The notes under the pieces: model-generated | Databases searched by the model: none | The model's input: the letters and a program-made list of their open reading frames with translations, nothing else | What the model was told of the DNA's origin: nothing | Source: Alphaproteobacteria bacterium | Lineage (GTDB): Bacteria; Pseudomonadota; Alphaproteobacteria; UBA828 | NCBI GenBank assembly: GCA_965237415.1 | Contig: CBDEFM010000002.1 | Location: forward strand, 832,001-896,000 | Length of the DNA: 64,000 nt | Direction of reading: 5' to 3' | Made by a program: the position numbers and the translations under genes | In this document: positions 12,812-39,919 of the stretch, one piece after another | Numbering within the stretch: position 1 is the stretch's first letter | Layout of the letters: each line of letters begins with the position of its first letter

Positions 12812-13419
12812 GCCGTCTGAACCGCCTTGCGGCGGTCGCGGCCCCGGCCGCGAAGCGGCTGCCGCCGCTTGGGGGGATTGAATGGACTGCTCCACGTCGT
12901 GAAGTCCGATCGTGCCACACGTGCTCGCTACAGCAACCCTGCGGGTCCTCCGCTCCGCTACGGCCTGGCCCAAGAAGCTCTAGGGCGGGCCGTGAAAGTC
13001 GCCGACCGAGAAGTTGGGCTTACGCGAACTCTCCGGCACCTCGCGTGTGGCGCGCCGGCCCCTGAAGCGCGGGGCCGCCGCCTCGGCCCGGCGCTCCCTG
13101 GAGCCCGGCACGCGGCAAGCAGCACCCAGCGCCATACCAGGCTGCGCCGTCGTGCATCCCTCCAACGACCCAGTCCTTGGCGGGTGCTACTCACCGCGCA
13201 CCTCAAATGCCAACTGGAAACCAGTCCAATCTCGACGACCCCGCGCCGGGCCTCCCCTCGCTGCACGACGCCCAACTTCCGCACCAAGATCGGCGACTTT
13301 CCGCACCAACCCCCGCCCAAGAGCTTCTAAGGCCAGGTGCTTCCGCTGCGCGCGCGTGTCCCGAAAGGACATCACGACGGGGCACAGGGTCCCGGAGGAT
13401 GACAGACAAGGAGATCGTC

Positions 13420-14337
13420 ATGATCGACACCACCGCAACCCAGACCGCATCGCCCACCGCCGCCGTCTGCGAGAGCCTCGCCCTCTTCGGCGCAAGCCCG
13501 GAGCGCGGCGAGCTCGACAGCCGCGAGGTCTGGGACGAGGACGACGCCATCGACGCCCTCGGCGAGGCCATCCGCGTCATCGTGGACGGCGTCACCGTCG
13601 AGGGGACGCAGCTCGCCGACGAGCGCGAGGCCCTGATGTGGGGCTTCGTGAACATGCTGCACTCGCAGGTCGCCCGCCTCGACCGCACCGTCGACCGGAT
13701 CGTGCCGGAGATGCGCGACCTCGAACGCGCCCAGGACGGCACCGAGGTGAAGACGTGGGAGTTGCAGCTCCAGACCGACCGGGCACACAACCTCGGCGAC
13801 CGTAGGGACGCGTTCGAGAAGATGCGCGATACCGCCGCCGAAGCCTACCGCGTCCACACCGGCGATGTCTGGCGCCCGCGCCACGGATCGCACGCCAGCC
13901 AGACCGGCAAGCTCACCTCGGCCGCCATCGACGCCCGGGACTTCCAGCGCGCACGGAAGGACCGCGAGACCCGGGCGCACCTGCCGGAGGGAACCCTGGT
14001 GGCCATCACCGGCGGCAAGCAGGTCATGGATGCGGACTCGGTCTGGACCACGCTCGACCGGGCGCGCGAGAAGTACGGCGACATGGTTCTGCTGCACGGC
14101 GGCGGTCCCGGCATCGAGAAGATCGCGGCGAGCTGGGCGGAGGCGCGCGGCGTCGATCAGGTCGTCTGCCGCCCGGACTGGAACGCCCACGGCAAGGCCG
14201 CCCCCTTCCGGCGCAACGACGAGCTGCTGAACCTGCTCCCGAAGGGCGTCATCGCCTTCCCCGGCTCAGGCATCACCGGGAACCTCGTCGACAAGGCCCG
14301 CCAGCTCGGCATCCCGGTCATGAACGTCGCTGCGTGA
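13420..14337 (+). CDS. DUF2493 / YspA-like SLOG-family protein
   Basis: C-terminal VAITGG...VLLHGGGPG...WAEARGV...PDWNAHGKAAPFRRNDELL...IAFPGSGITGNLVDKAR; AAGGAG RBS. Confidence 0.85.
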   Translation: MIDTTATQTASPTAAVCESLALFGASPERGELDSREVWDEDDAIDALGEAIRVIVDGVTVEGTQLADEREALMWGFVNMLHSQVARLDRTVDRIVPEMRDLERAQDGTEVKTWELQLQTDRAHNLGDRRDAFEKMRDTAAEAYRVHTGDVWRPRHGSHASQTGKLTSAAIDARDFQRARKDRETRAHLPEGTLVAITGGKQVMDADSVWTTLDRAREKYGDMVLLHGGGPGIEKIAASWAEARGVDQVVCRPDWNAHGKAAPFRRNDELLNLLPKGVIAFPGSGITGNLVDKARQLGIPVMNVAA

Positions 14338-15840: not shown

Positions 15841-18800
15841 ATGGTAGCCACCCTCGCCCAGGCGGCCTCGGCCGCGTACTACCTGGAGAGCCAGCGCTCG
15901 TTCCGCCATCCCAACGAGTACTACACGGCGGGCGAGGAGCCGGACGGGGTGTGGTTCAACCCCAAGGGACTGCTCGGCCTCGAGAACGGCGGCAAGGTCG
16001 ACAGCAGCGACTTCCACCGGCTCTATCACGGCTTCGCGCCGGACGGCTCCAGCAGACTCACCAGGAACGCCGGCAGCGACCAGCGCTCTCCGGGCGTGGA
16101 CATGACCTTCTCGGCCGACAAGAGCGTGTCCGCGCTCTGGGCCATCGCCGATCCCGCGCTCCGGGCCCGGATCGAGGAAGCCCACAACGACGCCGCCCGG
16201 GTGGCGCTGGAAGAGACGGTGTTCCGCTACTGCGCGTATACGCGGATCCGGGACAGGGAGGGGCGGATCAGGGCCCTGCCTGCCGATATCTCGGTGGCGA
16301 TGTTCCAGCACGGCACCAGCCGGGAGAACGATCCGCAGCTTCATACCCACTGCGTCATCTTCAATGCAGCCCTTACCCGCGAGGACGGCAAGTGGCGGGC
16401 CATGCACCAGTACCCGGTCTACAGCTGGGCCAAGGCCGCGGGCGCGGTCTACCGCAATGCCCTGGCCTGGAACCTCCGCGAGAGCCTGGGCATCCGCATG
16501 GAGCAGTACGGTCCCGATGGCGGGCTCACCCGCATCGAGGGCATGCCGGAGGACCTGCAGGTCTTCTGGTCGAAGCGGCGGAAGGCGATCGTCGCCAAGG
16601 CCGGAGAGCTGGGCATTCCGTCGCTCGGCAACGCCTCGCGCATGGCCGGCGTCAACAAGCTGACGCGGGCGGGCAAGTCGCACGACAACGACCCGGAGGT
16701 GCGACACCGGCGCTGGCACGAAGAGGCCGAAGGCTTCGCCGAGCGCGAGGAGCTGATCGCCTCCGTGACAGGGCATGAAGTGAAGACCACGCGGGAGGCG
16801 ATCCGGGAGCTGACTGGCCGGCTGGACGATCTTCCCGCCCACCTTGCCCGGCAAGAAGCCGTGTTCCGCCGCCCGGACATGGTGGAGGCGGCGGCCAATG
16901 CTGCGGCAGGCCTGATCGGCCCTGAAGCCTTGAGAACCGCCATCGAGCGGCTTCGACGCAACCCCGAGATCGAGCGACTGGAGCCGAAGAAGCCGACAGC
17001 GGAGTCGCTCGCGGGAATGGCCCATACCGAGATCTATTCCACCCGCCACAATCTCGGGCTGGAGCAGGCGGTCAAGGACATGGCAGAAGCCATGGCCGCC
17101 GATACCGGCCACGGGCTGCCTGAAGGGGCGGTCGAGGAGAAGGTGGAGACGCTGCTGGAGCAGGGCTATCCGCTGAGCCAGGAGCAGTCGCTGGCGATCC
17201 GCCATGCCACCCTGAAGGGCGGACGTGTTGCGGTGATCGAGGGCGCGGCGGGCTCGGGCAAGACCACCACGCTCAGGCCCATCACCGACCTGCACAAGGA
17301 GCACGGCTACGAGATCGTGCCGACCGCCGTCGCCTGGCGCACGGCGGTGGCGCTGGGAGACGACTGCGACGCACGCGCCTACTGCGTCGACAAGCTTCTC
17401 AAGCTGGCCGCCAAGGAGCAGGTCGAGATCGGCCACAAGACCCTGATCGTGGTGGACGAGGCGGGGATGCTATCGACGCGGCAGGCCCATCACATCCTTC
17501 AGCTCTCCGAGCGCCACGGGGCCAAGGTCGTGTTCGCCGGCGACACCCGGCAACAGCAGCCGGTGGAGGCAGGTCCGGGGCTGAGGCTGATCCGCGACGT
17601 CGCCGGCAGCGTCCGCGTCGACCGCATCAGGCGCCAGAAGGCGGACCTGGAAGACGTGCTGGTCCATGTCCACAAGGAGACGACCGAGCAGGCCCGATTC
17701 CGGGCCGGGCTTACGAACCCTCAGGAGCACGACGCGATCCTCGCGGACTACGAGGCGATGGAGAGAAAGCCGGTATTCACGCCGTGGCAGGTGGCGGTCT
17801 CGGAAGCCTTGAGGGACGGGGAGGCGGAGAAGGCCATCGAGGCGTGGCATCTGCGCAACCGGCTCCATCTCTGCCACGACGAGGAGAAGACGCTCACCCG
17901 TCTGGTGGATGACTGGGAGCGCCATGTGCGCACACACCCCGACACATCTACCGTCGTGCTCGCGCGCACGAAGGCCGAGGGACGGGCGCTGTCGTGGCTG
18001 ATGCGGCAGCGCGTGCTTGCGCGGACCTCCGACGCGAAGCGCGCCGTCATCGAGGTGAGCCGAGACCTGGACGGGCGGCTGACGGAGCCGCTGGAGATCG
18101 CGGTGGGCGACCGCATCCGCATCGGCGCCACGCAGTGGGAGAAGCAGCTCTTTAACGGCACAGTGGTCACGATAGAGGACCTGGAGGTCCGGCCCGCGGG
18201 TGATACCGCGGTCACGCGCAAGGCCCGCAATAGGACCGCGGCAGGGCGGCAGCCGGACGCGGACCGGTCCGAGCCTGAGTTTTGCGTCCACATCACCGCA
18301 CGTACCGACGACGGGCGGCGCGTGATCTTCCGCCATGACGAGATCCGTGACTGGCACGACAACATCCGCCTGGACTACGGCTATGCCATGACCATCGCGT
18401 CGGCCCAGGGCCTGACCGTCGACCGGGCGTTCCTTCTCGCAGACGACCGCCCGGCGCGGGAGACGATCTATCCCGCCGCCACCCGGCACCGCGAAGGCCT
18501 GGACGTCTACGTCAACCGGTCTCCCATCGTCTTCGACATCGCGGACAGCCGTCCCGAGGACGAGGCGGAGCGGCCGGTGCTGGACAGCGATATCCGTGGG
18601 TATCTGGCCGAGCGCTGGTCCCGCTCGCAGCCCAAGGAGGCGGCGCTCGATTACGTCTCCGACGGTATGTGGCGCGATGCGAGGGAGAGTGCACGGGCCG
18701 GCATCGCAACTCGCGCAGCCAGACCGGCCGCCATAAGGCATGGCGGTCCCGGGGATGAACAGCGAGAAGCGTCCGAGGCACAGGCGGCGGCGAACGACAA

Positions 18801-19974
18801 CGCGATCGTGCGCATCGCTCAGGAAATCCGTCACGCGGTCAACGGCTGGCGCCACGGAGTCGCCGTGGACGCGTTCGCGGCGGAGCGCGCGCAAGTGCTG
18901 GCCGCCTGGGACGAGCTGCGCGAGCGGACGCGCAACGAGGGCGACGCGGTGGCGCTGAGCCCCGCATTCCGCGAGACCCTCGACCGGCACGGCGCGCTCA
19001 TGAAGCAGGCCGCATCCTTCCGCCGTCGTCCGCAGGTGTTCGAGCGGCTGCTGGCCGAGCGCGCCGGGATCGGCGAAGGCGAGATCGAGCAACTCGGAGA
19101 CGAGCATGCCCGTGCCGGCAGGTATCTCAGGTCCGTCAAGGCCAGGACGTCACACGCAGCACGGCAGGAAGCACCGCACGAAGAGCCGGGGATCCTCGAG
19201 GCCATCGCAGCCGAAGCCGCCGCTCCCTCCGCCGGGCCCGCTCCCGAACGGCACGCTCCGTCCCGGACCGTGGAAGAGCTTGCCCCCGGCCCGGAGCGGG
19301 ATACCCGTCCTGACTGGAACACGCTCTACAAGGAGCTGCAACGGGACTGGAACGATCTCGTCGCACGCTCAGAAGAGCCCGATCTTCCGCTACTCCTGAT
19401 GGACGGGTACGACGCACTGATCCACCGCGTCCGCGCCCTCTTCGATCATCCCGACCTGTCCGAGAGGGCACATAGCGTGCTCGACCAGCTCCTCGACTAC
19501 CATGACGAGGAGACCGAGACCCGCCAGACCGCCGAGGGCTATCTGGCTTTGGCGGAGCGTCATGTCGAGGCGTACAAGGCCCTTGAGCGGCAGGCCAGCG
19601 AGCGCGGCATTCCCGTTGTCCGCCTCGACGCCTGGCCTGAATGGCGCGAGGCTGCCGTGATGCTGGCAGCCACTGGCAAGGCCATCCTCTCCAATGATGA
19701 GAACTATGGCGCCTATCTCGACGCCATCACGATTGGCAAGGCCCGTGCACGACTTACGGTCGAGCAGCTGACCAACCGGCTTCGCGAGAACCGCACCCGC
19801 ACACCAAGGCCGGAGGTACGACAGCCCCGGCGCGAGCCGACGCCCAAGCAGGAGCAGGGCTTCGCTCATTTTCTCGATGACCGCGAGCAGCTCAGAGAAC
19901 TACGTGATAAGGCCGAACAGCGCGACCGCAACCGCAGTAGGCACCTCCGGAGGAGCCGAGGCCTAAGCCTGTGA
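15841..19974 (+). CDS. MOBF (TrwC/TraI-like) relaxase-helicase
   Basis: Two YY pairs (AYYLES, NEYYTAG), DMTFSADKSVS, HUH QHGTSRENDPQLHTH, WSKRRKAI, Walker A GAAGSGKTT, VDEAGM, YGYAMTIASAQGLTVD. Confidence 0.95.
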   Translation: MVATLAQAASAAYYLESQRSFRHPNEYYTAGEEPDGVWFNPKGLLGLENGGKVDSSDFHRLYHGFAPDGSSRLTRNAGSDQRSPGVDMTFSADKSVSALWAIADPALRARIEEAHNDAARVALEETVFRYCAYTRIRDREGRIRALPADISVAMFQHGTSRENDPQLHTHCVIFNAALTREDGKWRAMHQYPVYSWAKAAGAVYRNALAWNLRESLGIRMEQYGPDGGLTRIEGMPEDLQVFWSKRRKAIVAKAGELGIPSLGNASRMAGVNKLTRAGKSHDNDPEVRHRRWHEEAEGFAEREELIASVTGHEVKTTREAIRELTGRLDDLPAHLARQEAVFRRPDMVEAAANAAAGLIGPEALRTAIERLRRNPEIERLEPKKPTAESLAGMAHTEIYSTRHNLGLEQAVKDMAEAMAADTGHGLPEGAVEEKVETLLEQGYPLSQEQSLAIRHATLKGGRVAVIEGAAGSGKTTTLRPITDLHKEHGYEIVPTAVAWRTAVALGDDCDARAYCVDKLLKLAAKEQVEIGHKTLIVVDEAGMLSTRQAHHILQLSERHGAKVVFAGDTRQQQPVEAGPGLRLIRDVAGSVRVDRIRRQKADLEDVLVHVHKETTEQARFRAGLTNPQEHDAILADYEAMERKPVFTPWQVAVSEALRDGEAEKAIEAWHLRNRLHLCHDEEKTLTRLVDDWERHVRTHPDTSTVVLARTKAEGRALSWLMRQRVLARTSDAKRAVIEVSRDLDGRLTEPLEIAVGDRIRIGATQWEKQLFNGTVVTIEDLEVRPAGDTAVTRKARNRTAAGRQPDADRSEPEFCVHITARTDDGRRVIFRHDEIRDWHDNIRLDYGYAMTIASAQGLTVDRAFLLADDRPARETIYPAATRHREGLDVYVNRSPIVFDIADSRPEDEAERPVLDSDIRGYLAERWSRSQPKEAALDYVSDGMWRDARESARAGIATRAARPAAIRHGGPGDEQREASEAQAAANDNAIVRIAQEIRHAVNGWRHGVAVDAFAAERAQVLAAWDELRERTRNEGDAVALSPAFRETLDRHGALMKQAASFRRRPQVFERLLAERAGIGEGEIEQLGDEHARAGRYLRSVKARTSHAARQEAPHEEPGILEAIAAEAAAPSAGPAPERHAPSRTVEELAPGPERDTRPDWNTLYKELQRDWNDLVARSEEPDLPLLLMDGYDALIHRVRALFDHPDLSERAHSVLDQLLDYHDEETETRQTAEGYLALAERHVEAYKALERQASERGIPVVRLDAWPEWREAAVMLAATGKAILSNDENYGAYLDAITIGKARARLTVEQLTNRLRENRTRTPRPEVRQPRREPTPKQEQGFAHFLDDREQLRELRDKAEQRDRNRSRHLRRSRGLSL

Positions 19975-20211: not shown

Positions 20212-21117
20212 TTAATCGCGATTTCTAAATCTATCCATACACGCGCAAACTAACAGGACTGCCAAATATGGCACTGCCTTGCTAATTTCCTGCACCGGAT
20301 CAGATACAGACTCTCCGGAGTTGATTTCAAACACAAGGCTGCCAATGCCCTGCTTTGCTTCTACTGAAACGTACAGATCCATGGCATATGTTCCTAGCAT
20401 TGCCAATAGAGTAATCGCAAAGACCCGTCTCCAGAAAAAAGCCGGGTTATGCAACAAAGTGAATACAAAAGTAAGCAAACCAACACCACCCGACACCAAC
20501 AATCGTGCTGAGGACGTCCATTCCAGTGGACCCAACGAGAACCAACTTATCACTGCTCCAATCAACGCAACTCCTAATGACATACATAACCAAACTAGAG
20601 ACGTGTTTTGTCTCGCAATCTCACCAGCCACAATCCTTTCTCTGTGACGAGCGGACATTTCTACTTGGAGCAGATCTTGAAAACGAACACTAGCAGCCCT
20701 AATCCTATTGAAGTCCGTCGCCGAGACCCGCAACGCCGCGACCTCTCCACTCCGCGCTATAACCGTTGCTGACCGCTTTTTTCCCAGTTCAATGGCAGCC
20801 ATCTCACCGACTTGATTAGGTGCTTCTCGCCTTGTTCTGTTTCCCGATTTAAAAACAACATCTACTTCTCCCGACAACAGAAACAAAACAACATTATCTT
20901 GCTCTCCCCGTCGAATAATTCTATCCCCCCTTTGGAAAAATACTGTTTCGCCTACGCCCATCAGACGACTAACAATTGTTTGGTCTCCGTTCACGGCAGG
21001 GTTTGTCGACAGCGTGTCGGCAATTCGAGCGTATCCGCTATTTCCCGCAAACGTGCCACGTAGCGTGGTCTCTGGGCCGAGGCCTATTGCCCGGCGTAAT
21101 TTCGCCGCCCAATACAT
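20212..21117 (-). CDS. Cyclic-nucleotide-binding domain fused to ~4 transmembrane helices; candidate Pycsar-type effector
   Basis: CNBD motifs GDRIIRRGE..LFLLSGEVDV..VGEMAAIE..RSATVIA; four hydrophobic segments in the C-terminal half; overlaps the WYL gene stop; GAGG RBS. Confidence 0.85.
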   Translation of the reverse strand: MYWAAKLRRAIGLGPETTLRGTFAGNSGYARIADTLSTNPAVNGDQTIVSRLMGVGETVFFQRGDRIIRRGEQDNVVLFLLSGEVDVVFKSGNRTRREAPNQVGEMAAIELGKKRSATVIARSGEVAALRVSATDFNRIRAASVRFQDLLQVEMSARHRERIVAGEIARQNTSLVWLCMSLGVALIGAVISWFSLGPLEWTSSARLLVSGGVGLLTFVFTLLHNPAFFWRRVFAITLLAMLGTYAMDLYVSVEAKQGIGSLVFEINSGESVSDPVQEISKAVPYLAVLLVCACMDRFRNRD

Positions 21118-21974
21118 TTTTCTACCTCGTCGATGTTTTCAATGTGCAGCAGAAAACTGCTGCTGTTTCTTATTTTTCCGTCTTGTGTCTTGCGAGGATC
21201 GAATCCATAATGACGAAGATAATAGAACAGCATCGCTTGCCGTACACTAAGTCGCAGATGGCCGTTGGTCATTCCGTACTCAAATTCAAGCCGCTCTTTC
21301 TTGTGTTGATCAATTGCGGGATCGACCTTGAGAATCACGTCCACGTTGTTGTGCCAAGCCGTATCTACTGGGATCTCGCAGGCCGGCTTATCTCGCAGTT
21401 CTGTCCGCTCGATTCGCGACAAAACAAAATCGGAATAGCGCGTCCGCTCGAGGTCGTAAGCTCGCATGTGCCATCTGTGACCATCGCTGGCGATGGCGTG
21501 TGGTAACAACATCCGGAATCCTGTACTTCCCGAGCTCAAGGATATGTAGCGCGCATGCAAACAGATTCGGGAGCGCATGCTTTGCAGCACATGCATGAGG
21601 ACACGAGAAGATATTTTGCGCGATTGGGCCGAGACCGCGTCGAAGACCGGAATCGACTTAGCCCAGATCTCTCCTTCCCGACGGTAGCCACAGCTCAAAA
21701 TGTCTAGATGCATTAGATATTCGAAGGCCTCTCCCGTTATAAGAACCGGGCGAAACTTAGAAGTGGGTACGTATGCTTTCTGCCTGGGATCGTAAAGCAT
21801 ATTGTCCGGACAAGCATCCATATAGCTGGTGAGATCGATTGTGGCCTGCTGCAAAGAGATCGAAAATTGATCCTGCAGCTTCTTGCGCCCCACTGACCCC
21901 TCCCAGTGGAGTTGAAACTCGATGAACTCGAAACGTCTACGTATGCTTACCTTCAGATCCTGCAATTCCGACAT
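21084..21974 (-). CDS. WYL-domain transcriptional regulator, CapW/BrxR-like
   Basis: RRFEFIEFQLHWEGSVGRKKLQDQFSIS..YDPRQKAY (wHTH), YISLSS..RMLLPHAIASDGHRWHMRAY..YSDFVLSRI (WYL), EYGM..VRQAMLFY. Confidence 0.9.
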   Translation of the reverse strand: MSELQDLKVSIRRRFEFIEFQLHWEGSVGRKKLQDQFSISLQQATIDLTSYMDACPDNMLYDPRQKAYVPTSKFRPVLITGEAFEYLMHLDILSCGYRREGEIWAKSIPVFDAVSAQSRKISSRVLMHVLQSMRSRICLHARYISLSSGSTGFRMLLPHAIASDGHRWHMRAYDLERTRYSDFVLSRIERTELRDKPACEIPVDTAWHNNVDVILKVDPAIDQHKKERLEFEYGMTNGHLRLSVRQAMLFYYLRHYGFDPRKTQDGKIRNSSSFLLHIENIDEVEKCIGRRNYAGQ

Positions 21975-22002
21975 CTCGTGTCACCCCAGCACGTCCTCCG
22001 CT

Positions 22003-22041
22003 TTTATAGCATATTGACATTTTCTAGAAAAGCTTTATTAT
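22003..22041. promoter_or_regulatory. Overlapping divergent promoters with a central palindromic operator
   Basis: Plus strand: TTGACA (22014-19), 16 bp, TATTAT (22036-41). Minus strand: TGcTATAAA (22003-11). Perfect palindrome TTTTCTAGAAAA at 22020-22031. Confidence 0.75.
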
Positions 22042-22113
22042 ATGGAAGGATTGGGCGTGCCGTGCGCTGCAACCGTATCACGGGGCGCGTACTGATGTTG
22101 AAAGGAGTAAGCA

Positions 22114-23718
22114 GTGGCTTGGGGGCAAGAGCAGGCGCAGAGGCGCATCAGAAAGCTGATCGGGGAAGCCCCGACGATCGACGTACATCGGTTTTCTGAG
22201 GAGTACATGCCGCTTTACGAAGTGCGCGCGGCCCAGCTGACGGCTGCTGGGGAGCGTATAGCACCACCGCTGTTTGACCTCACGAAGGGTTCGGCGGTGT
22301 TAGTCGACACAGTCCAGATATACATCGCCATTACCAACTACGACGAGTATCGCATCGAAGAGGACTCAGAAACCGAGACGTCGCATGAGCGGGCCCTCCG
22401 GTTCCTGCATCTTTACTATAGTGCTTGCGACCGCGTAGCTGAAGTGACTCCTGCACAGCGGGTCGATTTCCATGGTAGCCGGATGCACGCTGTTGTAATC
22501 GATCGGTCCGGTGCCGGCATCACACGACACAGTATCGCCGACGCCCTGGCTTTCGTCCGAGATTTTCGAATAGTTGCCGAGCGAGCAAACAGCGAACTCG
22601 CGAGAAGCGCTTTGACAGCGCGATTTCGCGTTGGAATCGACGCGGGAACTTGTGTTGCAATCAATAACGGGACCGGGATAGAGCAGGAACCCATGTTTCT
22701 TGGTAGCGCGGCAAACTATGCCGCCAAGCTGGCAGAGGGCGATCAGCCGGGTATCTTCCCGTCCGATCGCGTGAGGGCCCTCGTGGGCCTGGAGGAGCTG
22801 GGGGTTCTCGAGTTCGCGCACGGTCTCGACGAGGCTTCCATTGATCAGGTCATCGCAAGTCGCGATGAAGGCGGGCGGGCAGCTCTCCCGGCGTTTGCCC
22901 ACACCGCAAGCACCGAATCCATTGTCGAGACCTGGCGGGAGGAGATTGTCAAGGCGGAGGTATTTGATCCTACAATTCCCAAATTCTCGTTTCATCACAA
23001 GGAGCCGCCCCTAAGCGACATCGACTATCGGGATCTATCGCCGAGCAACTCTATTAGGATGCCATTAATTTCAGTGTTTGCCGACCTTTCTGGCTATACC
23101 CAATACGTTGATGAAGCGATCACGAGCGGTCGTATCGGAGAAGCAATCCGGGCTCTGTACGTAATTCGTGAGGAGCTTCAGAATGTCGTGGAGGAGGACT
23201 TTGACGGGCGCAAGGTGCGCTTTATTGGAGATTGTATTCACGCTCTGCTGGCAGAAGGCACGAGATCAGAGACGGACGACCGCAAGAGTGTCATTCAAAG
23301 TTTTGAGTGTGCCGGTGGCCTTCGCTCTTCTTTTTTGATCTGTCAAGAGGAGCTCACCGGCCTCGAGGCGCTCGGCCTCACCATCGGCATTGAGTACGGT
23401 TGGACGCCGGTCTCCCGCATAGGAATTCGTGGCGTAAGGTCCGTCCGACTTGCTTCCAGCGGCGCAACAGCTACCTCCGAGCAAATGCAACGCGACTGCG
23501 GTGACAATGAGGTCAAGTTCGGTCCAAACGCAATGACCCATATCCCTGACGCGTATCATGATCTCACCAATGCCTCTGGCGTGGCAGCCGCTTTGACGTA
23601 TGACGATGTAGTCTTGTGCTTTGCCCCTCAGACCGCTCCAGCAACGACGCGACGCCATGTTCGCGCGCACACACCGGCTGACGGGACGGTGGCCAGGGCA
23701 CACTTCAAGACCATATGA
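22114..23718 (+). CDS. Tandem-domain class III nucleotide cyclase, PycC-like
   Basis: N-domain RVGIDAG..PMFLGSAANYAAKLA with degenerate metal sites; C-domain VFADLSGYT..RFIGDCIHA..IGIEYG..RIGIRG; AAGGAG RBS, GTG start. Confidence 0.85.
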   Translation: MAWGQEQAQRRIRKLIGEAPTIDVHRFSEEYMPLYEVRAAQLTAAGERIAPPLFDLTKGSAVLVDTVQIYIAITNYDEYRIEEDSETETSHERALRFLHLYYSACDRVAEVTPAQRVDFHGSRMHAVVIDRSGAGITRHSIADALAFVRDFRIVAERANSELARSALTARFRVGIDAGTCVAINNGTGIEQEPMFLGSAANYAAKLAEGDQPGIFPSDRVRALVGLEELGVLEFAHGLDEASIDQVIASRDEGGRAALPAFAHTASTESIVETWREEIVKAEVFDPTIPKFSFHHKEPPLSDIDYRDLSPSNSIRMPLISVFADLSGYTQYVDEAITSGRIGEAIRALYVIREELQNVVEEDFDGRKVRFIGDCIHALLAEGTRSETDDRKSVIQSFECAGGLRSSFLICQEELTGLEALGLTIGIEYGWTPVSRIGIRGVRSVRLASSGATATSEQMQRDCGDNEVKFGPNAMTHIPDAYHDLTNASGVAAALTYDDVVLCFAPQTAPATTRRHVRAHTPADGTVARAHFKTI

Positions 23719-24512
23719 GTTCAATTGACCAGCTCAATAGGGCAGTACCAAGTTGGGCGACAATCGCAAATCGGATTGGAAACTACTTGCACGTTATTGC
23801 CCGCGCACCCATGCCTAGTGGTGCATTCGGCCGGACCTACGGATTGGTCATCAAATCAACCAAAGACGATAAAGCACAGGTCAGTGAAAGCACCGCTCAA
23901 GCACTGCTTCCTAATTGTTGCCTCGAACGCCACATTAATTCGGACGGCACATTCTGCCTGCATCTTGATTCCACTAAACCTATTTTGAATTCTGATAGCG
24001 CCATCATTTGGTGGGTTAGTCTCCGAGATTACCTAAATCATCAGGACTATTCATCCAAACGGCGCAAGTGGCCTATGCATGCCCAACTGAGTCACGGTGA
24101 CGCAGCTCTAGTTCAACTGCGGATGGAAAAACTCGCAGAGCCGTTGGCGTGGAAACAGGAAGTACTTACTTCGATTTTTCGAGGCAAAGGATGGCTTGCA
24201 AATGAGTTGCCGCGTCGAAGCAAAGACAAGTCTAAACTCGTTAATGCACGAGGGCCTTGTCCTAGAGGATGCCGTACCAAACATCACCCCTATACACGTC
24301 AGGCGTGTCAGCGCGTTAAGTGCACTCCAAACTGCAAGAAGCAGCATCGCCAGATCCTTCGGGTAAATTGTCCAAATAGAGCACTAGTGGAAGAGCTTGC
24401 ATTACTTGACAATTTGAGACGTGAATCGGAGGAAAGCGTCGTTGCGGACCTTCGTTCCAAAGGCGTGCAGTGTTGTAGAACTATGGATGACTGTCCATTG
24501 GCCGACAAATAG
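23715..24512 (+). CDS. Prokaryotic E2 (UBC-like) domain protein with Cys-rich C-terminus
   Basis: ERHINSDGTFCL resembles the UBC active-site motif; C-terminal PCPRGC..C..C..C..CPNR..CCRTMDDCPL; ATGA overlap with the cyclase. Confidence 0.75.
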   Translation: MSSIDQLNRAVPSWATIANRIGNYLHVIARAPMPSGAFGRTYGLVIKSTKDDKAQVSESTAQALLPNCCLERHINSDGTFCLHLDSTKPILNSDSAIIWWVSLRDYLNHQDYSSKRRKWPMHAQLSHGDAALVQLRMEKLAEPLAWKQEVLTSIFRGKGWLANELPRRSKDKSKLVNARGPCPRGCRTKHHPYTRQACQRVKCTPNCKKQHRQILRVNCPNRALVEELALLDNLRRESEESVVADLRSKGVQCCRTMDDCPLADK

Positions 24513-24736
24513 ACCGCGAGTTGGCACTGTCCGCTAGCACTTGCATCATTGGCTACGCGGCCACGTCGACGGAGTCGCCAGGATCGCAATTGGCGTCACG
24601 CCTGACATCACCACCGTCAATCTGTGTAGTTTGCTATTTTCCAAGTATGGACTATTTTAATTTGCCCGCTACACAGCTAGATCAGCGACGTGTCCTGCCG
24701 GGTTAGCGCACTTTGTTCCGGCGTCGCACGACAGTG

Positions 24737-25405
24737 CTAACGCCAACCTTTATCCAAGCGATTTCTGGCGTCGACTAGGGACAGCTCGGTGAACAGATCC
24801 CGCCGACGCTCGAACAGACGCTCCTCGATCTCGTCCTTCACACACCGTGGCGGGAGATCGCCCTCTGCAACAGCCTCACGCTCGTTGCGCAGCCAAGCCA
24901 TCGCTCGATAAAGGTGGTGCAGGCGCAAGCCGGCCCCGCCGAGGATGACGTAGTCGACCATCCACCTCCGCACGAGCAGTCCGAGCCGGAGACGAACAGA
25001 CAGTGGAGCACGCTGATGAACACCGCCCGCTCGACGGCGAACTCGAAGCCGCGCTCACCCAGTGACTGCGTCACCACGCAGCCCGGCACTAGCCGCTCCC
25101 AAGGCCGACCGAACAGCAAAGGCCTGCCGATGCGGGTTCAGACAAGACGGCGCGCCGCCAAGTGGGATAGCTCCATCGCCCGCTCGCAACGACCCGCCGG
25201 CGAGCCAATCACGCGATTGAGCTTGCCGCTGGCGTGCAGCACATCCATGCGGCCGAGCGCACGAATCGTGCGCTGGCGTACCTCCTTGCCCTCGCGGATG
25301 CTGTCCGCGAGGTAGTGGTATCGGTGTCCCCGAGCGCCATTTTCGCGGACAGATATCGAAGCGTAGTCCCGATGGCCAAGCCCCAAAACACGCGGACTCC
25401 GCTCG
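24737..25405 (-). mobile_element. IS1634-family transposase remnant (frameshifted, truncated)
   Basis: Fragments in different frames: REGKEVRQRTIRALGR; FEFAVERAVFISVLH.LFVSGSD; LHHLYRAMAWL..KDEIEERLFERRRDLF. Confidence 0.8.
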
Positions 25406-25650
25406 GCATCCCAAGATGCTTCACAATTCTATTTCAAGTAGCGGGAAACCCGACTGCAATATCCCTCGCTTCAACAAATTGGCCAAACTTTCCAACCCTA
25501 AATCCGGAATCCAATGTTGAACTTTGTCTAGACACTCCCGGGGAAAGAATAACCGCGCCTTCCAGTCTTTCAGACTGCCAAATTTACGTACCGCCTCAGT
25601 TCAACCGATGCATCTACGCGGCGCACATGATCTGATTTCCAATTAATTCT

Positions 25651-26346
25651 TTACTTCAATGACCACCAATACGAAGAGCGATATATTCGACGATTATTTT
25701 GCGCGGTCCACTTTCGCTCCTCCCACATATTCTTACCGTTGCTAAACTTCGTATCGTCGTTCATGCTACCGTATACTCTATCTGTAATCCAAGTAGCATA
25801 TGAATCCGACATTGCTGACAACTTCGCGGCATGATTCGCCGCTCTCCCAATCCATACTATATCGTTATTGTTGCGAATGCCTGCTTTTGCAGCCATGACC
25901 TTTGTGCTATCCACCCCCGTTACATGTTTCATCACGTACTTGGTGTTTTCGTAATGCTTCTTTAGCATAGGCTGTATTACGTTCCTTACTGCCCAGTTTA
26001 TCTTTAATGCAGTTCTCACCGCGCTCGTGTTCTTGCTTTCTCCAATGAATATCCCCATTACGCGGTCGCCATCAAACGACCTAACCTCCCCTCCCTCGCT
26101 TCGGATTAGTCTAGTAGCGCACTGAAGGAATGCCTTGTAGTTTTCCGCGGCAAACCAATCCTTATAGTTATCAACAAGCATGGTCGATGCTGACAAATCA
26201 GTATAGAGGATTGTAGCTTGTAAATCGACTGCCTCATTTCCGTGCGATAAGTCGACGTCTTCGGGAACTTTCCTGCCATCTCGGCGTCGCCACTTCTCAA
26301 CATATATGCCGCTCACTTGCTTCTGTAAGTCTGCCTTCAACCCCAT
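25651..26346 (-). CDS. pycC: Single-domain pyrimidine cyclase, PycC-like (Pycsar)
   Basis: ATILYTDLSAST, YKAFLQCA, SFDGDRVMGIF.G.SKNTSAVRTALKIN, GIRNNNDIVWIGRAANHAAKL, C-terminal MW..W..YRSSYWW; matches my recollection of Burkholderia-type PycC along its length. Confidence 0.88.
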   Translation of the reverse strand: MGLKADLQKQVSGIYVEKWRRRDGRKVPEDVDLSHGNEAVDLQATILYTDLSASTMLVDNYKDWFAAENYKAFLQCATRLIRSEGGEVRSFDGDRVMGIFIGESKNTSAVRTALKINWAVRNVIQPMLKKHYENTKYVMKHVTGVDSTKVMAAKAGIRNNNDIVWIGRAANHAAKLSAMSDSYATWITDRVYGSMNDDTKFSNGKNMWEERKWTAQNNRRIYRSSYWWSLK

Positions 26347-26439
26347 GATCCGTTTTCCTATTGTAACGCTAGTTTACTGGATCGAACATCCGCCAGCCTC
26401 AGGAACCAAGAAGCGTTCAAGCGCTCTGCATGGACCGTT

Positions 26440-26775
26440 CCGTTGGACGATTCGACAAAGGTATTAACGGTCGAGTTTCGCGGCCATGCGAAGTCCAGGG
26501 TCACACCGTATGTCCAAGCCCAGAGATCGAGTTCCATGCGGATTAACTCGGACCCGCTGTCGGCTCGCGGATGCTTCTGCGCATGTCATGGACTCGGTCG
26601 AATTTCTCCAGCGTCACGACCACATTCGATCCGCGGTAGGTCTCGCATATGTCGATTGCCGGCGACAGGCGGTTGAAGGCATCCACGATCGTCAGGGTGC
26701 GGATGCGCCGGCCGTCGAACAGCTGGTCCGAATTGAAGTCCATCGCATTGACCTCATTCGGCGCCGCAGCCGAGC
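26440..26775 (-). mobile_element. IS3-family transposase remnant
   Basis: MDFNSDQLFDGRRIRTLTIVDAF..., degenerate ELDLWAYGVTLDF fragments, frameshifts. Confidence 0.75.
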
Positions 26776-26801
26776 GGCGGCGGGAGGATCACAGTCGCTC
26801 T

Positions 26802-27535
<734 letters not shown>

Positions 27536-28593: not shown

Positions 28594-29328
28594 GTGTCGG
28601 GAATGAATGGCTTGTTCAGACTCAAGGCTTCTTTCGCGGGGTGTCTAGTCGCTCTGCTACTGGTCGGATGTGCCGACGTACCGGAAGAAGCTGTAACACT
28701 CTCGGTGACCATCGGTAACGATCTCGAGGAAGTTCACCGGTCGCACCGCGAACTTGCCATCCGTTACTTTGAACGAAGCCGCGACGATATCAATCGCTTC
28801 GTAGACGATGTCTACCGCCCGGCCTTCGTGCAGAAGGCATTGACGAATATCACCTATGAGTACGAAGTCGGCGAACCGGAGTTGACCTTCTTGCCAATTC
28901 TACAAACCGAGTTCGCGAGACTGAACGCCGGTGAAGAAGGTGCGGATCCACTGTTCTACATGCATTTCGTCGTGGATGAAGCGGTCAGAACAATCGAGCA
29001 AACACGCCTCGATTTGCTCAAGCCCATTGAGAGTCGCGAGCGAGAGGTCCTAAGAGCCATTGACGATGCCTATAGCAGCGTAATGAACGCACATGCAATC
29101 GTCACCGGCCACCTAGCCTCTGTCCGCCGCGTCCAACAAGCTCAGGACGAACTCGTGGCTGATGCAGGACTTAAGGATATCCGCAGAAAGTTCATCGACA
29201 GGGCGGCGGACATATCGGATCGCGCTTCCGATCTTCTAGCGAAGGCCCGGACCACGTCCTCGACCCTTGATGATCTCGACGAGACAATCGAGAGGGTCCA
29301 GGAAGCGTGGAGTGAGGGGATACAATAG
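28594..29328 (+). CDS. Putative helical lipoprotein of unknown function
   Basis: Lipobox-like LLLVG|C after a hydrophobic stretch; amphipathic helical body. Confidence 0.75.
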   Translation: MSGMNGLFRLKASFAGCLVALLLVGCADVPEEAVTLSVTIGNDLEEVHRSHRELAIRYFERSRDDINRFVDDVYRPAFVQKALTNITYEYEVGEPELTFLPILQTEFARLNAGEEGADPLFYMHFVVDEAVRTIEQTRLDLLKPIESREREVLRAIDDAYSSVMNAHAIVTGHLASVRRVQQAQDELVADAGLKDIRRKFIDRAADISDRASDLLAKARTTSSTLDDLDETIERVQEAWSEGIQ

Positions 29329-29337
29329 GAGGCCTTA

Positions 29338-29643
29338 ATGTCCAATGCAGAGGATAGGAAGAAGGCGTTTCAACGATCTGTTCGGAAGCGGTTTAAGGAG
29401 ATCGACGAGGAATTGCGTGGTCGGCACAAGAAGCATCTGGACGCGCTTCTGGGAATCAGCCGCGCGGAGATCGACGCGATAACGCCAGACACGACGGACA
29501 TGGATACCTACAACAAGCTGATCGTGGTTGTCACGGAGGCGACCCGCAAGAATGTGGCAATTGCTGATCTGCGTCAGACCATTCGCGAAATGGGGACCGT
29601 GGCCATAGATATTGCCAAGAAAGTTCCCGATCTTATGCGGTGA
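29338..29643 (+). CDS. Small hypothetical protein co-transcribed with the lipoprotein
   Basis: AGGAGG RBS, starts 9 bp after the previous stop. Confidence 0.75.
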   Translation: MSNAEDRKKAFQRSVRKRFKEIDEELRGRHKKHLDALLGISRAEIDAITPDTTDMDTYNKLIVVVTEATRKNVAIADLRQTIREMGTVAIDIAKKVPDLMR

Positions 29644-30046
29644 ATCATCTGCGAGCGACGGACTATAAACCGTGAGAGTGCTGATCGCACTTCATGGCTG
29701 CGAGCACAGCGCTGTTGCAAATCGCACTTGCGTGAAATCGCGTCACTACAGCAGAGATAACGGTCCATTTGTAAAGATATAAGTAACTGCTTGAAAGGCG
29801 AGGTCACCCCACTGGTTAAGGCGCCTGTCCAAGCATCGGGATAACGCCAGTTCGATGATATTGAATCACCAGCTGAGTAACGCTGTCAACGGGCTCATCG
29901 GGGAGGCCTCTAGAGCCGAGCAATCAGCAAATTGCTTGGTGTGTGGCATTCTGTTGGCCAATGGCAACACAAGTGACTTGAAATGGTGACGAAGCGACCG
30001 CTACATTCTGCTACAGTCCGCGCCTCGACGCTGAGAACGGTCGCGA

Positions 30047-31168
30047 GTGCGAATGTCACCCACTAAGTTTTTCGGCTCGGACGTCTACACGCACTACACG
30101 GCCACCTACGCATGGAACTCGAACCAGATGGCCCATGCGATGATGGGCCTGGCCGGTACCATGCTGTTTGTGCACGCCGCCCCGCGGCTCGGCCTCGAAG
30201 TCTGGTACGGCGCGCTCTTCTTCGTGATACCGTTCCTTAAGGACACGGCCGATTATTGGGTCGACCGCTCCAACACCGGTGGAGTGTTTGGAGAGACGGC
30301 CGCGCATCGCCGCGAACTGCTCGTCGACGGGGTGACCGATAATTTGTTCTGGAGCGTGGGAATGGTGCTCGCGCTGTTCATGGCCCTGAGCCGCGATGGC
30401 ACGCCCTGGTACCTTTACATCGTCTTTGTCGCCGCGGTACTGCTGATCGTGGCCGCCGTGTGTTGTGTCGGGCGCCTCTTCAACGCCCAGAAGAGACGCT
30501 ACGATTCGTCGGGCCTGCCCTACTATTTCCGCCTACCGTGTTATGACGGCAATCTGGTCGCGGCCTGGGTCATCGATTCGAAGGCTTCGCGTGATGCTAC
30601 TAGCCCGGTTGAGGAGGTCGAACGGTTCGTCTACCGGCACGATTGCCGAGCGCAGCATCTGATACTCGTGGGGCCGCCGCGCTCAAGCAAGACCACCTTG
30701 GCGGCCGCCATCGGCTCGGGCCTGATCGTCAGGGGTCAAACAGTGCGCTATATGTCCAAGATGCAGCTCATCGAAGAATTCAATATCTCGGGCGAACGCA
30801 GCGCTTCTCAGCCCGCCCATCCTTGTGACGCCGGGATTCTCATTACGGACGACCTGGATGAGCCAACCGGACTCGATCCCATTCTCCCCGCTCTTGCGTG
30901 CAAGTCCACCGTCTGGGTAGTCACCAGCCCGCGCTCCGGCAAGGCGGAAGACTGGACAGACTTGTTGGGCAGAGGCCTGCGCGGCCGTTTGGTCGCTGTG
31001 AGACTCGACACGAAATCGTGTCGACACAGGAATAATTGCAGAAGCCCTCGATCGCTCGCGATCGCGCTCTCGAGTGCATCGCTCCTGGTATCGGCGATCG
31101 CTGGCGTCGGTTCGATCATTCTAATTGTGTTACCAATCGATTTGTTTGCCAATCAGCTTCTTCGGTAA
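30047..31168 (+). CDS. Membrane protein fused to a P-loop NTPase-like domain
   Basis: About 4 N-terminal hydrophobic segments, LILVGPPRSSKTTLAAAIG (variant Walker A), ILITDDLD (Walker B), C-terminal TM. Confidence 0.7.
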   Translation: MRMSPTKFFGSDVYTHYTATYAWNSNQMAHAMMGLAGTMLFVHAAPRLGLEVWYGALFFVIPFLKDTADYWVDRSNTGGVFGETAAHRRELLVDGVTDNLFWSVGMVLALFMALSRDGTPWYLYIVFVAAVLLIVAAVCCVGRLFNAQKRRYDSSGLPYYFRLPCYDGNLVAAWVIDSKASRDATSPVEEVERFVYRHDCRAQHLILVGPPRSSKTTLAAAIGSGLIVRGQTVRYMSKMQLIEEFNISGERSASQPAHPCDAGILITDDLDEPTGLDPILPALACKSTVWVVTSPRSGKAEDWTDLLGRGLRGRLVAVRLDTKSCRHRNNCRSPRSLAIALSSASLLVSAIAGVGSIILIVLPIDLFANQLLR

Positions 31169-31198
31169 GCAGAGGCCACTAGGAAGGGAGTATCTGCA

Positions 31199-32098
31199 AT
31201 GAGTCAAGATTGGGCAGCAATTGTGGCTTCTTTATGTATACTCGCTCTATACTTCGTGACGGCCTTCGCAGTTAGGAGCAGGTGGGATGGCACAGCGCTA
31301 ATTCATCCTCTCAAGGTTACCGCCCATATTAGAGGCCGGGCAAGTTTGTCTCGAACGCAGGTATTTTTCTTCACCTTCATATTCATCTGGATTACAATTT
31401 ATTGGTTATTGAGAGAGGGGGAGTTGGCACCCATCAATGACACGGTCCTGGCTTTGCTGGGAATTGCAGTAGCAGGAGCTGGATTGGGTCGAGTAGCTGA
31501 CACCACTCGATTTCGTGTCAGCGGAGAAAATTGGGCATGGGCAAAGGCAAAGAGATGGATTTCTCAAGACTTTTCCAAAGCTTTACCCCCTGACCCATCC
31601 AACAATACGGTAGGAACCACGCCGAAGCTGAGCGATCTGTTTATGTCTGACCAAGGTTTCGAGGTTGCCAGATTTCAGGCAGTGGCCTTTTCATTGGTCG
31701 TGGGTATCGCCCTCTTATACAATGGCGTAACGGTGGCTCATAGTGCAGACTTCGGCGATTTTTCTGTGGAGGGACACTACCTCACTTTGATTGGCATCAG
31801 CCAGGGAGTTTATGTTGGAGGTAAGTTGACCGGAGGCAATCCGATCGGCGAATTGAATAAGAAGCTGGACCAACTCCGACCACTGGAATTGGCGTTTACG
31901 CAAACTGTGGCAAGGTCCGAACTTTGGCTTCGAGCTGAAGAGGAGCACCGAACCATGAAGCGGGCCCGGGAGGAAATTGCGCCCGACGAGTATTCCGCAT
32001 ATAGCAGCGTTGCATCCGAGGCAGCCACACTCGTTCAGGAGCTGACCGGCGTGGTCGTTGCACAAGACCGGATAGAACCAAGACTACCGCCGCGATAA
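31199..32098 (+). CDS. Multi-pass membrane protein of unknown function
   Basis: ASLSRTQVFFFTF, LALLGIAVAGAG, ARFQAVAFSLVVG, LIGISQGVYVGGK; GGGAG RBS. Confidence 0.75.
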   Translation: MSQDWAAIVASLCILALYFVTAFAVRSRWDGTALIHPLKVTAHIRGRASLSRTQVFFFTFIFIWITIYWLLREGELAPINDTVLALLGIAVAGAGLGRVADTTRFRVSGENWAWAKAKRWISQDFSKALPPDPSNNTVGTTPKLSDLFMSDQGFEVARFQAVAFSLVVGIALLYNGVTVAHSADFGDFSVEGHYLTLIGISQGVYVGGKLTGGNPIGELNKKLDQLRPLELAFTQTVARSELWLRAEEEHRTMKRAREEIAPDEYSAYSSVASEAATLVQELTGVVVAQDRIEPRLPPR

Positions 32099-32429
32099 TT
32101 GGCGCAGCGGCAACTACACGACATTTTCGGGTTGAGTTGGCAAGGCGCATGAGGCCCGACATCGAGCGCCGTGCTCCGATTGCGTTTCTGCAGCGCTCTC
32201 CCGGTGCCAGCAGGCTCGGGCCTGACCCTTTCCGCTGCCCCCCCTTACACGCAATTCTGTTGCGGCGCGGCCGGAACCGGCTCCAAGATCGACGCTGACG
32301 CGCACTCCACCTAGCGTCGTGGTAAGCTATGAGCTCGGTATTGTCAGCCCGTTATGCTCCGCTTGGGTGTGTTGGGCTAGTTGTGGGCTGGCCCAAGGGC
32401 GAGCCCCACAATCGCCTGATCTCAATAGG

Positions 32430-32549
32430 TTACGAGAGAGACAAGCTCCCTCCCTCTGCCAAGGCGACGAGCTTTGAGGCGGCAGCCGCGTGCAACAGCA
32501 TCTCGCCGCGATGCGCGTAAATCAGGATGTTGGTGTCTACAGCGATCAC
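32430..32549 (-). pseudogene. Truncated VapC (39 aa)
   Basis: GTG overlapping the antitoxin stop, MIAVDTNILIYAHRGEM..LAEG, then unrelated sequence and TAA. Confidence 0.8.
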
Positions 32550-35259: not shown

Positions 35260-35334
35260 GTCATAGGCAACCATTCGCAGACTCGGGGATCATATCGTCA
35301 ATATGACAGAGTGGGGCATTGAGCGGCAGTAGAG

Positions 35335-37801: not shown

Positions 37802-37833
37802 CTCCTCTGCCTCCAAAGCACTTCGGTCGGCGC

Positions 37834-39897: not shown

Positions 39898-39919
39898 GTC
39901 TCGATGACCTCCTCGATCG

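Follow-up and report, generated by a model that had tools for sequence, protein, structure and literature searches.

The gene at positions 20212..21117 (minus strand) of a 64,000-nucleotide stretch of alphaproteobacterial DNA (contig CBDEFM010000002.1; the whole stretch is hereafter called the window) encodes a 301-amino-acid protein in which a PycTIR-type cyclic mononucleotide (cNMP)-binding domain is followed by a four-helix membrane module. By homology and gene context, this protein is a third Pycsar effector architecture, beside PycTIR and PycTM, and it belongs to a conserved cassette equipped with CapW- and E2-type genes. The gene probably supplies the effector for an abortive-infection system of the Pycsar type, carried as cargo of an integrative conjugative element, with killing presumed to occur at the membrane. 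A first-pass annotation of the same DNA had described a PycTIR-type receptor that carries four transmembrane helices instead of TIR, a cyclic-pyrimidine-gated and membrane-disrupting effector created by domain swap and unusual in being co-transcribed with a regulator rather than with a cyclase. The architecture, the receptor type and the domain swap are supported below, the gating by a cyclic pyrimidine and the membrane disruption are kept as proposals, and the last part is revised.

Receptor domain and membrane module of the effector

The minus-strand open reading frame (ORF) spans exactly 20212..21117 and begins with ATG; the description of its product draws on the ORF list, Pfam, PADLOC, the PDB, AlphaFold2 and Foldseek. 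A homology search returned 61 matches at E<=0.001, of which 59 were PF00027-only proteins and the first was the window's own protein. The relatives are 243–309 amino acids long and share 40–68% identity over 76–100% of the query. The PADLOC profile PDLC00730 (299 positions) is also matched end to end, over residues 1–297 (E 8e-107). Judged by its sequence, the gene is genuine and not a chance ORF, and its start codon is taken to be correct because the N-terminal MYW.AKL is kept among the relatives. Every host named in the records of the family is alphaproteobacterial, and the phage records searched with the effector gave no match.

At E<=0.01, Pfam recognized cNMP_binding alone in the effector (residues 59–140, E 4.5e-10, exceeding the curated cut-off), with no TIR and no HTH. 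The motif strings cited in the first-pass annotation are all present, namely F23-x-G25-x-S27-G28, IADTL32-36, N39, V42, G44-D45, VGEMAAIE103-110 and RSATVIA115-121. The receptor comprises residues 21–172 (20602..21057, minus strand), as delimited by PADLOC, the PDB, Foldseek and alignments. It contains an N-terminal extension, a beta-roll, the phosphate-binding cassette G104-E105-M-A107...R115-S116-A117 and a C-helix with R157, residue roles being assigned through the PsPycTIR equivalents (PMC11224242). Among PDB sequences, the PycTIR receptor construct 8jsk_A matches best (E 2.3e-10); it aligns over residues 22–161 with the N-terminal extension and C-helix included, whereas kinase and channel cyclic nucleotide-binding domains (CNBDs) with comparable PDB scores align over the core alone, approximately residues 56–139. 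Foldseek likewise ranked two PycTIR CNBDs first and second (8jsk, root-mean-square deviation (rmsd) 1.6 Å, target TM-score 0.82; 8jsj, 2.0 Å, 0.86); CRP/GlxR, PKA and HCN came below them, SthK was also among the fold matches, and neither the sequence nor the fold comparison placed the domain with CRP or channel CNBDs. Two further PADLOC profiles, PDLC00731 (residues 21–172, E 3.5e-28) and PDLC00732 (residues 22–162, E 5e-24), cover only the receptor in the window protein, whereas the PycTIR of P. aeruginosa matches both over its full length. On these grounds the proposed kinship to PycTIR, closer than to CRP or channels, can be retained; by homology and predicted structure, the receptor is of the PycTIR type. 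A CRP-like regulator was rejected as an identity for the protein, since Pfam finds no HTH and the NCBIfam CRP equivalog reaches 16 bits (E 0.0064), its cut-off being 266 bits.

The membrane module occupies residues 173–299 (20221..20601, minus strand). Hydropathy, AlphaFold2 and alignment together give it four predicted transmembrane helices, an invariant N224-P225...F228-W229-x-R231 in the cytoplasmic loop that joins helix 2 to helix 3, and, between helices 3 and 4, a hairpin modelled with low confidence. Kyte–Doolittle analysis with a 19-residue window placed the four hydrophobic segments, all between residues 171 and 293, at approximately 171–199, 203–224, 232–252 and 275–293. The AlphaFold2 model, built on an alignment of 50 family sequences (mean pLDDT 82.9), consists of a beta-roll, a long helix (144–170) nearly continuous with the first helix of the module (173–194), and helices at 202–222, 225–249 and 274–299. 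Kyte–Doolittle, AlphaFold2 and Pfam agree with the earlier description of four hydrophobic C-terminal helices without TIR or HTH. The loop between helices 2 and 3, N224-P225-A-F-F228-W229-R-R231, is the best-conserved feature of the module. R230/R231 after helix 2 and the basic C-terminal DRFRNRD fall on the CNBD side in the alignment and the model, which points to an N-in, C-in protein with four spans that obeys the positive-inside rule.

Similarity of the effector to PycTIR ends at about residue 170 in the alignment, as would be expected if another C-terminal module had been placed behind the same receptor by domain swap. PF10137 (TIR) is absent at E<=0.01; the P. aeruginosa PycTIR used as a control gave E 1.6e-34. 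A mis-called PycTIR with a diverged TIR was also considered and was rejected by Pfam, hydropathy, AlphaFold2 and the alignment with PycTIR. No match to PF18967 was found for the whole effector at E<=0.01, nor to any of the PycTM or 2TM models in PADLOC; the 170-amino-acid PycTM of a Sphingomonas plasmid, serving as positive control, was recognized by both (PF18967, E 7e-10; PADLOC PycTM, E 9e-25).

The origin of the membrane module was sought more widely. When the transmembrane halves of three family members were compared with Pfam at E<=10, only inconsistent sub-threshold matches appeared (Wzz, DUF2534, DUF6785 and others), which were taken as noise, and neither PF18967 nor VanZ was among them. 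A phmmer search with residues 165–301 against 1.84 billion cluster representatives (E<=0.001) returned 27 proteins, of which 19 carry PF00027 ahead of the match, six are short (84–226 amino acids) and lack PF00027, and two are long. The short ones are probably fragments. The two long multi-domain proteins were matched in many short stretches and were judged unrelated and spurious. No N-terminal domain other than the cNMP-binding one was found among the phmmer matches. A separate AlphaFold2 model of the transmembrane half (pLDDT 75.8) was compared with the PDB in Foldseek, where 0 of 432 matches reached E<=0.001 and no channel fold was found; the ESM Atlas gave no usable look-alike. By sequence and model searches, then, the module forms a small family of its own, which stands in every case behind a PycTIR-type receptor and has no detectable relative elsewhere. 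A four-copy complex prediction for residues 133–301 scored 0.00 and 0.00; its controls were not run and it counts neither way.

The existing profile names do not reflect this architecture. PDLC00730 is labelled 'TIR', yet it is matched end to end by four-helix proteins without TIR; PDLC02371 bears the name PycTIR but fits a member of the four-helix family end to end, as it does a real PycTIR. Automated annotation would therefore report an NADase where none exists. The family was thus known to earlier collections, but under an output domain that it lacks.

The surrounding cassette and its conservation

The effector gene is preceded on the same strand by the gene of a CapW/BrxR-family HTH-WYL regulator of 296 amino acids (21084..21974, minus strand), assigned through Pfam (WYL, E 1.8e-8) and through PDB matches to S. 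maltophilia CapW (7tb6, E 3e-42, residues 12–267) and BrxR (7t8k, E 5e-36). The regulator gene overlaps the start of the effector with its last 34 nt, and the two are therefore expected to be co-transcribed, as had been proposed. CapW is described as a repressor (PMC9122588).

A divergent control region of 139 bp (21975..22113) separates the regulator gene from a cyclase operon on the other strand and was studied by promoter and repeat search and by locus alignment. It contains a sigma-70-like cyclase promoter, TTGACA-16-TATTAT, at 22014-22041 on the plus strand (11 of 12 consensus positions matched), with a -35 hexamer that does not vary among the 11 loci aligned. The imperfect inverted repeat found at 22000-22033 is guessed to be an operator. 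Comparison of window positions 21975-22113 with the matching intergenic regions of 10 loci revealed that most relatives carry a palindrome, CCTATA(A/T)4TAGG, about 10–15 bp from TTGACA and over what is probably the cyclase promoter's -10; in place of this palindrome the window carries TTTTCTAGAAAA. The palindrome and TTTTCTAGAAAA are candidate operators for the WYL repressor.

The first gene of the divergent operon begins 997 bp from the effector start and 139 bp from the WYL gene. It encodes a clade-A PycC of 534 amino acids with two cyclase-like halves (PycC534; 22114..23718, plus strand), which matches PADLOC PDLC00762 (E 5e-172) and PaPycC (6yii, E 2e-66). PaPycC belongs to clade A, the enzymes of which are reported to consist of two consecutive cyclase domains (PMC11224242). 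The invariant residues of PycC534 include D324 and D373 in the C-terminal half and N201 and K205 in the N-terminal half. They suggest that D324/D373 are the metal-binding aspartates and form one composite active site with N201/K205, as in pseudo-heterodimeric class III cyclases. PycC534 ends in a doubled tail, Y.RAH...(P)RAH(F) (window 23620-23718). By eye on the C-termini, a Y.RAH...RAHF tail is present in 16 of 18 clade-A PycCs (those of the window and of loci L001-L006, L008, L009, L012-L014, L016, L017, L019 and L022) and is missing from those of an Agrobacterium plasmid (L020) and a P. aeruginosa plasmid (L021). An 'invariant RAH' over all 18 cyclases was discarded as an alignment artefact for L020 and L021.

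The clade-A stop codon is overlapped by 4 nt by the gene of an E2-like protein of 265 amino acids (23715..24512, plus strand) with E2-ntca and E2-Crich domains (Pfam PF20298, E 9e-20, and PF20272, E 1e-11; PADLOC PDLC00878, E 8e-98). Its invariant residues are C69, E71-R72-H73-I74 and F80-C81, among which the active-site cysteine probably lies. The Y.RAH...RAHF tail of the cyclase is a candidate handle for this E2. The neighbour proteins scanned around the window cassette included neither ThiF nor JAB.

A second cyclase, a clade-B PycC of 231 amino acids (PycC231), lies at 25651..26346 on the minus strand and matches PADLOC PDLC00766 (E 2e-101) and BcPycC (7r65, E 1e-56). Both PycC cyclases are thus no more than 5.3 kb away from the effector, one of them in the adjoining divergent operon, and the statement that the effector is found with a regulator rather than with a cyclase had to be given up. 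Short ORFs flanking the clade-B gene (24600-25650 and 26350-26950) resemble transposase or insertion sequence (IS) debris by eye and have no Pfam match; the gene was probably displaced in the window by IS-mediated rearrangement. A tblastn search of the window for a second effector or a remnant, with three family effectors, two TIR effectors, PycTM and the window WYL protein as queries, recovered known genes alone.

The arrangement was compared across 20 effector loci, of which one is that of the window, four come from plasmid records (L001-L003, L019) and 15 from genomes (L004-L018). Some of these are near-copies, 17 of the 20 effector rows being different, and the genome scan reaches close relatives only, since it was based on two exact peptide patterns. 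At least one PycC is present in all 20 loci. The WYL gene stands directly upstream of the effector, with overlapping reading frames, in 16 of them, so that co-transcription with a regulator is the family norm and not, as the first-pass annotation held, unusual. Clade-A PycC and E2 occupy the divergent side in 15 of the 20 (L015 is cut by a contig end), and in 11 the gene directly behind the effector is a clade-B PycC (L004 is cut). The WYL/PycC-A/E2 side is lacking in L007, L010, L011 and L018. In L007 the effector is truncated and adjoins Tn3 and IS6-type transposase genes. In L010, a plain effector and PycC pair is flanked by genes for a ROK regulator and an ABC transporter, and L011 has a near-identical pair, of which 453 nt of upstream flank are covered. 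On the effector tree the context labels need eight changes against a minimum of four, which indicates that the cassette modules have been gained and lost repeatedly.

The presence of two cyclases also permits a two-tier relay, in which clade-A PycC and E2 would act as upstream sensor or amplifier and clade-B PycC would be the true partner of the effector; in the window, where that pair has been pulled apart, the effector may then be poorly served or idle. The frequency of clade-B PycC directly behind the effector fits this proposal, as do L010, L011 and L018, where it is the sole cyclase, and the joint recurrence of both cyclases in L005, L006, L014-L017 and L019. 'Relay-like or locally amplified' signalling has been raised for multi-cyclase loci (10.64898/2026.08.12.744502). 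A form expected of a relay is seen in Agrobacterium tumefaciens plasmid L020 (NZ_CP039924.1), where positions 2887-7400 encode a 367-amino-acid fusion of a cNMP-binding domain and a cyclase, a clade-A PycC and a 601-amino-acid Prok-E2_B–ThiF fusion; no effector was identified within the stretch seen, and the locus may represent a cyclase relay that is switched on by a cNMP and equipped with a full E1/E2. In contrast, seven loci (L001, L002, L003, L008, L009, L012 and L013) contain the clade-A module, WYL gene and effector with no clade-B cyclase in the flanks examined, so the clade-A enzyme must suffice there. The excess of context changes on the effector tree also argues for free exchange of modules rather than fixed coupling. 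A two-tier relay is regarded as quite unlikely, and the reading in which one or both cyclases serve the effector is kept.

The window cassette stands at the start of an approximately 18-kb island of 50–58% GC inside DNA of 65–73% GC. Upstream are genes for a YspA/SLOG-domain protein (13177-14337) and a TrwC relaxase-helicase (15841-19974), with the island directly after the latter; near the island end are a tyrosine integrase gene (38722-39999) and, beside it, tRNA-Thr (40074-40149). Since the low-GC island lies between the TrwC relaxase and an integrase beside tRNA-Thr, the cassette is read as cargo of an integrative conjugative element (ICE). Just beyond the clade-B cyclase, a PIN toxin (153 amino acids) and a Phd/YefM antitoxin (90 amino acids) are encoded with a 4-nt overlap (26802-27532, minus strand). 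The island also encodes a 373-amino-acid protein with a weak IstB/IetA-like P-loop match (30047-31168), an IS3-type transposase (33621-34898) and a DUF2513 protein (34888-35259). In the remainder (28594-38307), several ORFs of 145–299 amino acids have no Pfam or PADLOC match and may be unrecognised cargo or defence genes. Among the related loci, the effector is similarly found on plasmids, ICEs and islands, near type IV secretion system genes, toxin-antitoxin pairs and transposases; in two Sulfitobacter plasmids and one Roseovarius plasmid, the cassette adjoins type IV secretion and coupling-protein genes.

This setting bears on a third possibility, that the protein is a cNMP-regulated channel, a transport regulator or a nucleotide sink tethered to the membrane, serving in housekeeping or regulation rather than as a suicide effector. 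CNBDs gate many benign channels, with SthK and HCN among the fold matches, and fusions of VanZ-type membrane domains with cNMP-binding domains are described outside defence (10.1101/2025.01.14.632903). Such a role is very unlikely, however, given the coupling to a Pycsar-type cyclase in 20 of 20 loci, mostly with CapW and E2 as well, and the carriage on mobile elements among the neighbours just listed. Moreover, the transmembrane half matched neither a Pfam family, VanZ included, nor a channel fold in the searches above, and the closest relatives of the receptor are NADase suicide effectors.

The ligand site and the activating nucleotide

The contacts between PsPycTIR and cyclic UMP (cUMP) have been described (PMC11224242). 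G86 and E87 bind the ribose and A89, R97 and S98 the phosphate; S98 also contacts uracil O2, R138 stacks on the base, and N143, termed specificity-determining, reads uracil N3 and O4. In the alignment, the corresponding pairs are G104/G86, E105/E87, A107/A89, R115/R97, S116/S98, R157/R138 and I162/N143. Among 20 family members, the glycine, the glutamate and R115 are kept in all, A107 and R157 in 19, and position 116 is serine or threonine. To judge from these residues, the effector pocket is kept for a 3',5'-cyclic mononucleotide. Homology of the cyclases makes cUMP the most likely, though uncertain, activating nucleotide. Enzymes of clades A–D are reported to make cUMP, and Y, D and R of BcPycC, a clade-B enzyme, to select pyrimidine (PMC11224242); this Y/D/R set is kept in PycC231 and in 13 of 13 short PycCs.

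Several observations weigh against a cUMP-gated, membrane-breaching effector of this kind. The position of PsPycTIR N143 is isoleucine in 11, leucine in seven, methionine in one and alanine in one of the 20 family members and asparagine in none, although asparagine stands there in 4 of 4 aligned CNBD–TIR proteins. Because this residue is replaced throughout, base recognition and cUMP specificity cannot be transferred from PycTIR. On the cyclase side, AlphaFold3 ligand confidence favours ATP for E2-linked 'Pycsar-like-4' cyclases (10.64898/2026.08.12.744502), a prediction that conflicts with the production of cUMP reported for clades A–D. The R12-E114 salt bridge of the PsPycTIR filament is not kept in the effector, where the PDB alignment places A30 and A133. 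In the membrane module, the hairpin at 250-267 has a pLDDT of about 58 in AlphaFold2, and the fourth hydrophobic segment is the weakest (Kyte–Doolittle maximum 1.5). Pore formation is proposed by analogy with PycTM and the transmembrane effectors of CBASS, because no relative of the module is known. Finally, clade-B PycC in the window is 4.5 kb from the effector, not adjacent to it, on the far side of the E2 gene.

The first two of these points would be accommodated if the architecture and role were the same but the ligand were a purine cNMP, either cAMP or cGMP, produced by the clade-A cyclase that is linked to E2, the receptor having drifted accordingly. A precedent for a shift in base specificity within the cyclase family exists in the sister branch Pucsar, which is reported to make cGMP (10.64898/2026.08.12.744502). 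Against a purine ligand stand the cUMP product attributed to clade A and the close match of PycC534 to PaPycC, a member of that clade. In addition, L010 and L011 have a clade-B cyclase alone, of the type in which the pyrimidine-selecting Y/D/R of BcPycC is invariant, and the short cyclase of Sphingomonas plasmid L022, which is paired with an asparagine-bearing TIR effector, has the same Y/D/R. Because the short cyclases of both effector types share these residues, the change from asparagine to isoleucine is not mirrored in the cyclase. A purine ligand is thus considered doubtful, and cUMP is retained as the best candidate.

Proposed mechanism and comparison with known systems

In the mechanism proposed for the window, the CapW-like WYL repressor, encoded on the effector transcript, faces the divergent PycC-E2 operon across the 139-bp region and, by analogy with CapW, would hold both promoters low until a signal of stress or infection is received. 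On infection, clade-A PycC with E2, clade-B PycC, or both would make a 3',5'-cyclic mononucleotide, which homology to PaPycC and BcPycC suggests is most likely cUMP. The E2 may regulate the clade-A cyclase through its RAH...RAHF tail, in the manner of E2-only type II CBASS. The nucleotide would then bind the cytoplasmic N-terminal PycTIR-type domain, whose contact residues are those listed above, and the C-helix, which runs into the first transmembrane helix, would move with the ligand and alter the packing or oligomeric state of the four helices. The inner membrane would be breached, leading to cell death or growth arrest before phage maturation.

A bolder interpretation takes the cassette as a distinct Pycsar design, in which a toxic effector is under direct CapW control, the clade-A cyclase is licensed by E2 through RAH...RAHF, and a receptor re-tuned by the replacement of Asn143 with a hydrophobic residue is joined to a membrane module without relatives. 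This is possible but unlikely. If it were true, one receptor would drive two unrelated killing outputs, NAD+ depletion and membrane damage, and in two-cyclase loci both inputs would converge on one receptor. PADLOC already models the family and E2/WYL-linked 'Pycsar-like-4' cyclases are described in a preprint, so that the cassette is better regarded as a Pycsar variant than as a new system, and the overall picture of Pycsar is unchanged by the four-helix family. It nevertheless offers a compact test bed for E2-only control of a class III cyclase, for CapW-type repression of a toxic effector and for base specificity without the uracil-reading asparagine.

In the literature searched, no description was found of a four-helix membrane module joined to a receptor of the PycTIR type; such a family may be listed in the tables of Tal et al. 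2021 or in the preprint supplements, which lay outside this search. Among systems already described, CNBD channels (SthK, HCN, MloK1) and CRP/FNR regulators have the beta-roll and phosphate-binding cassette in common with the effector. In channels, the CNBD comes after a pore domain of six transmembrane helices, whereas in the effector it comes first and the four-helix module is unlike any channel fold (Foldseek). CRP/FNR regulators end in an HTH, which Pfam does not find in the effector.

The cyclase of type II CBASS is a CD-NTase, with a C-terminus that ends in glycine, whereas that of the window is a class III PycC and carries RAH...RAHF instead. The effector gene of type II CBASS also belongs to the cyclase operon, while that of the window is on the repressor's transcript. 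The layout is otherwise alike, since in type II short (E2-only) CBASS with CapW the cyclase is followed by an E2-only gene and CapW is divergent from the cyclase operon (PMC9122588, PMC11153139). Conjugation of one cyclase to another has been suggested for E2-only type II CBASS (PMC11153139), and the phrase 'Type II Pycsar' is already in print (PMC11601596).

A published arrangement close to this one is the 'Pycsar-like-4' subclade, which is marked out by its E2 genes and, at times, WYL regulators, with CNBD–TIR and 3TM as the dominant effectors (Chakravarti et al., bioRxiv 10.64898/2026.08.12.744502). Its cyclase with an E2-like gene, joined in some loci by WYL, corresponds to the arrangement in the window, but the text on this subclade names no CNBD-4TM effector, which is what the window encodes. 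From the homology to PaPycC and the presence of E2 after a P. aeruginosa pycC, we infer that clade A is Pycsar-like-4.

Effectors of the PycTIR and PycTM kinds are established for Pycsar (PMC11224242). PycTM (PF18967; '2TM' in PADLOC and 'pJV1-spdB3 3TM' in 10.64898/2026.08.12.744502) is, like the present effector, a membrane protein presumed to kill through the membrane, but it has no Pfam CNBD and no sequence relation to the effector, in which a canonical CNBD precedes the helices. Sphingomonas sp. R1 plasmid pR1b (NZ_CP110113.1, L022) carries two Pycsar modules back to back at 1935-6863, with a TIR effector and short cyclase encoded on one strand and, on the opposite one, clade-A PycC, E2 and the 170-amino-acid PycTM. 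PycTM therefore occurs there with the same pair of clade-A PycC and E2 as the four-helix effector.

PycTIR (PsPycTIR 8JSK, NpPycTIR 8JSJ) is the nearest relative in the receptor part, its N-terminal extension, CNBD and C-helix being homologous to those of the effector (26–27% identity, rmsd 1.6–2.0 Å). The ribose and phosphate contacts and the stacking arginine are kept in both, while PycTIR has the uracil-reading Asn143 where the effector family has isoleucine, leucine, methionine or alanine. PycTIR ends in a TIR NADase (PF10137), in place of which the effector has four transmembrane helices, and the output of the latter is therefore expected to be membrane-based rather than NAD+ depletion. 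The partner cyclases of PycTIR come from clades A and B, the same as those of the four-helix effector. On P. aeruginosa plasmid L021 (NZ_CP115292.1), an annotated pycTIR is followed by a clade-A pycC, directly after which an E2 gene missing from the PLSDB gene table was found at 5419-6192 on the plus strand (E2-ntca, E 1e-32; E2-Crich, E 7e-39); thus a reference-type clade-A PycTIR locus also has E2. The sharing of receptor, cyclases and E2 while the killing module varies supports a domain swap in one direction or the other. The family can be seen as a natural experiment in modularity, in which the receptor fold and the two cyclase clades known from PycTIR occur with a different killing module.

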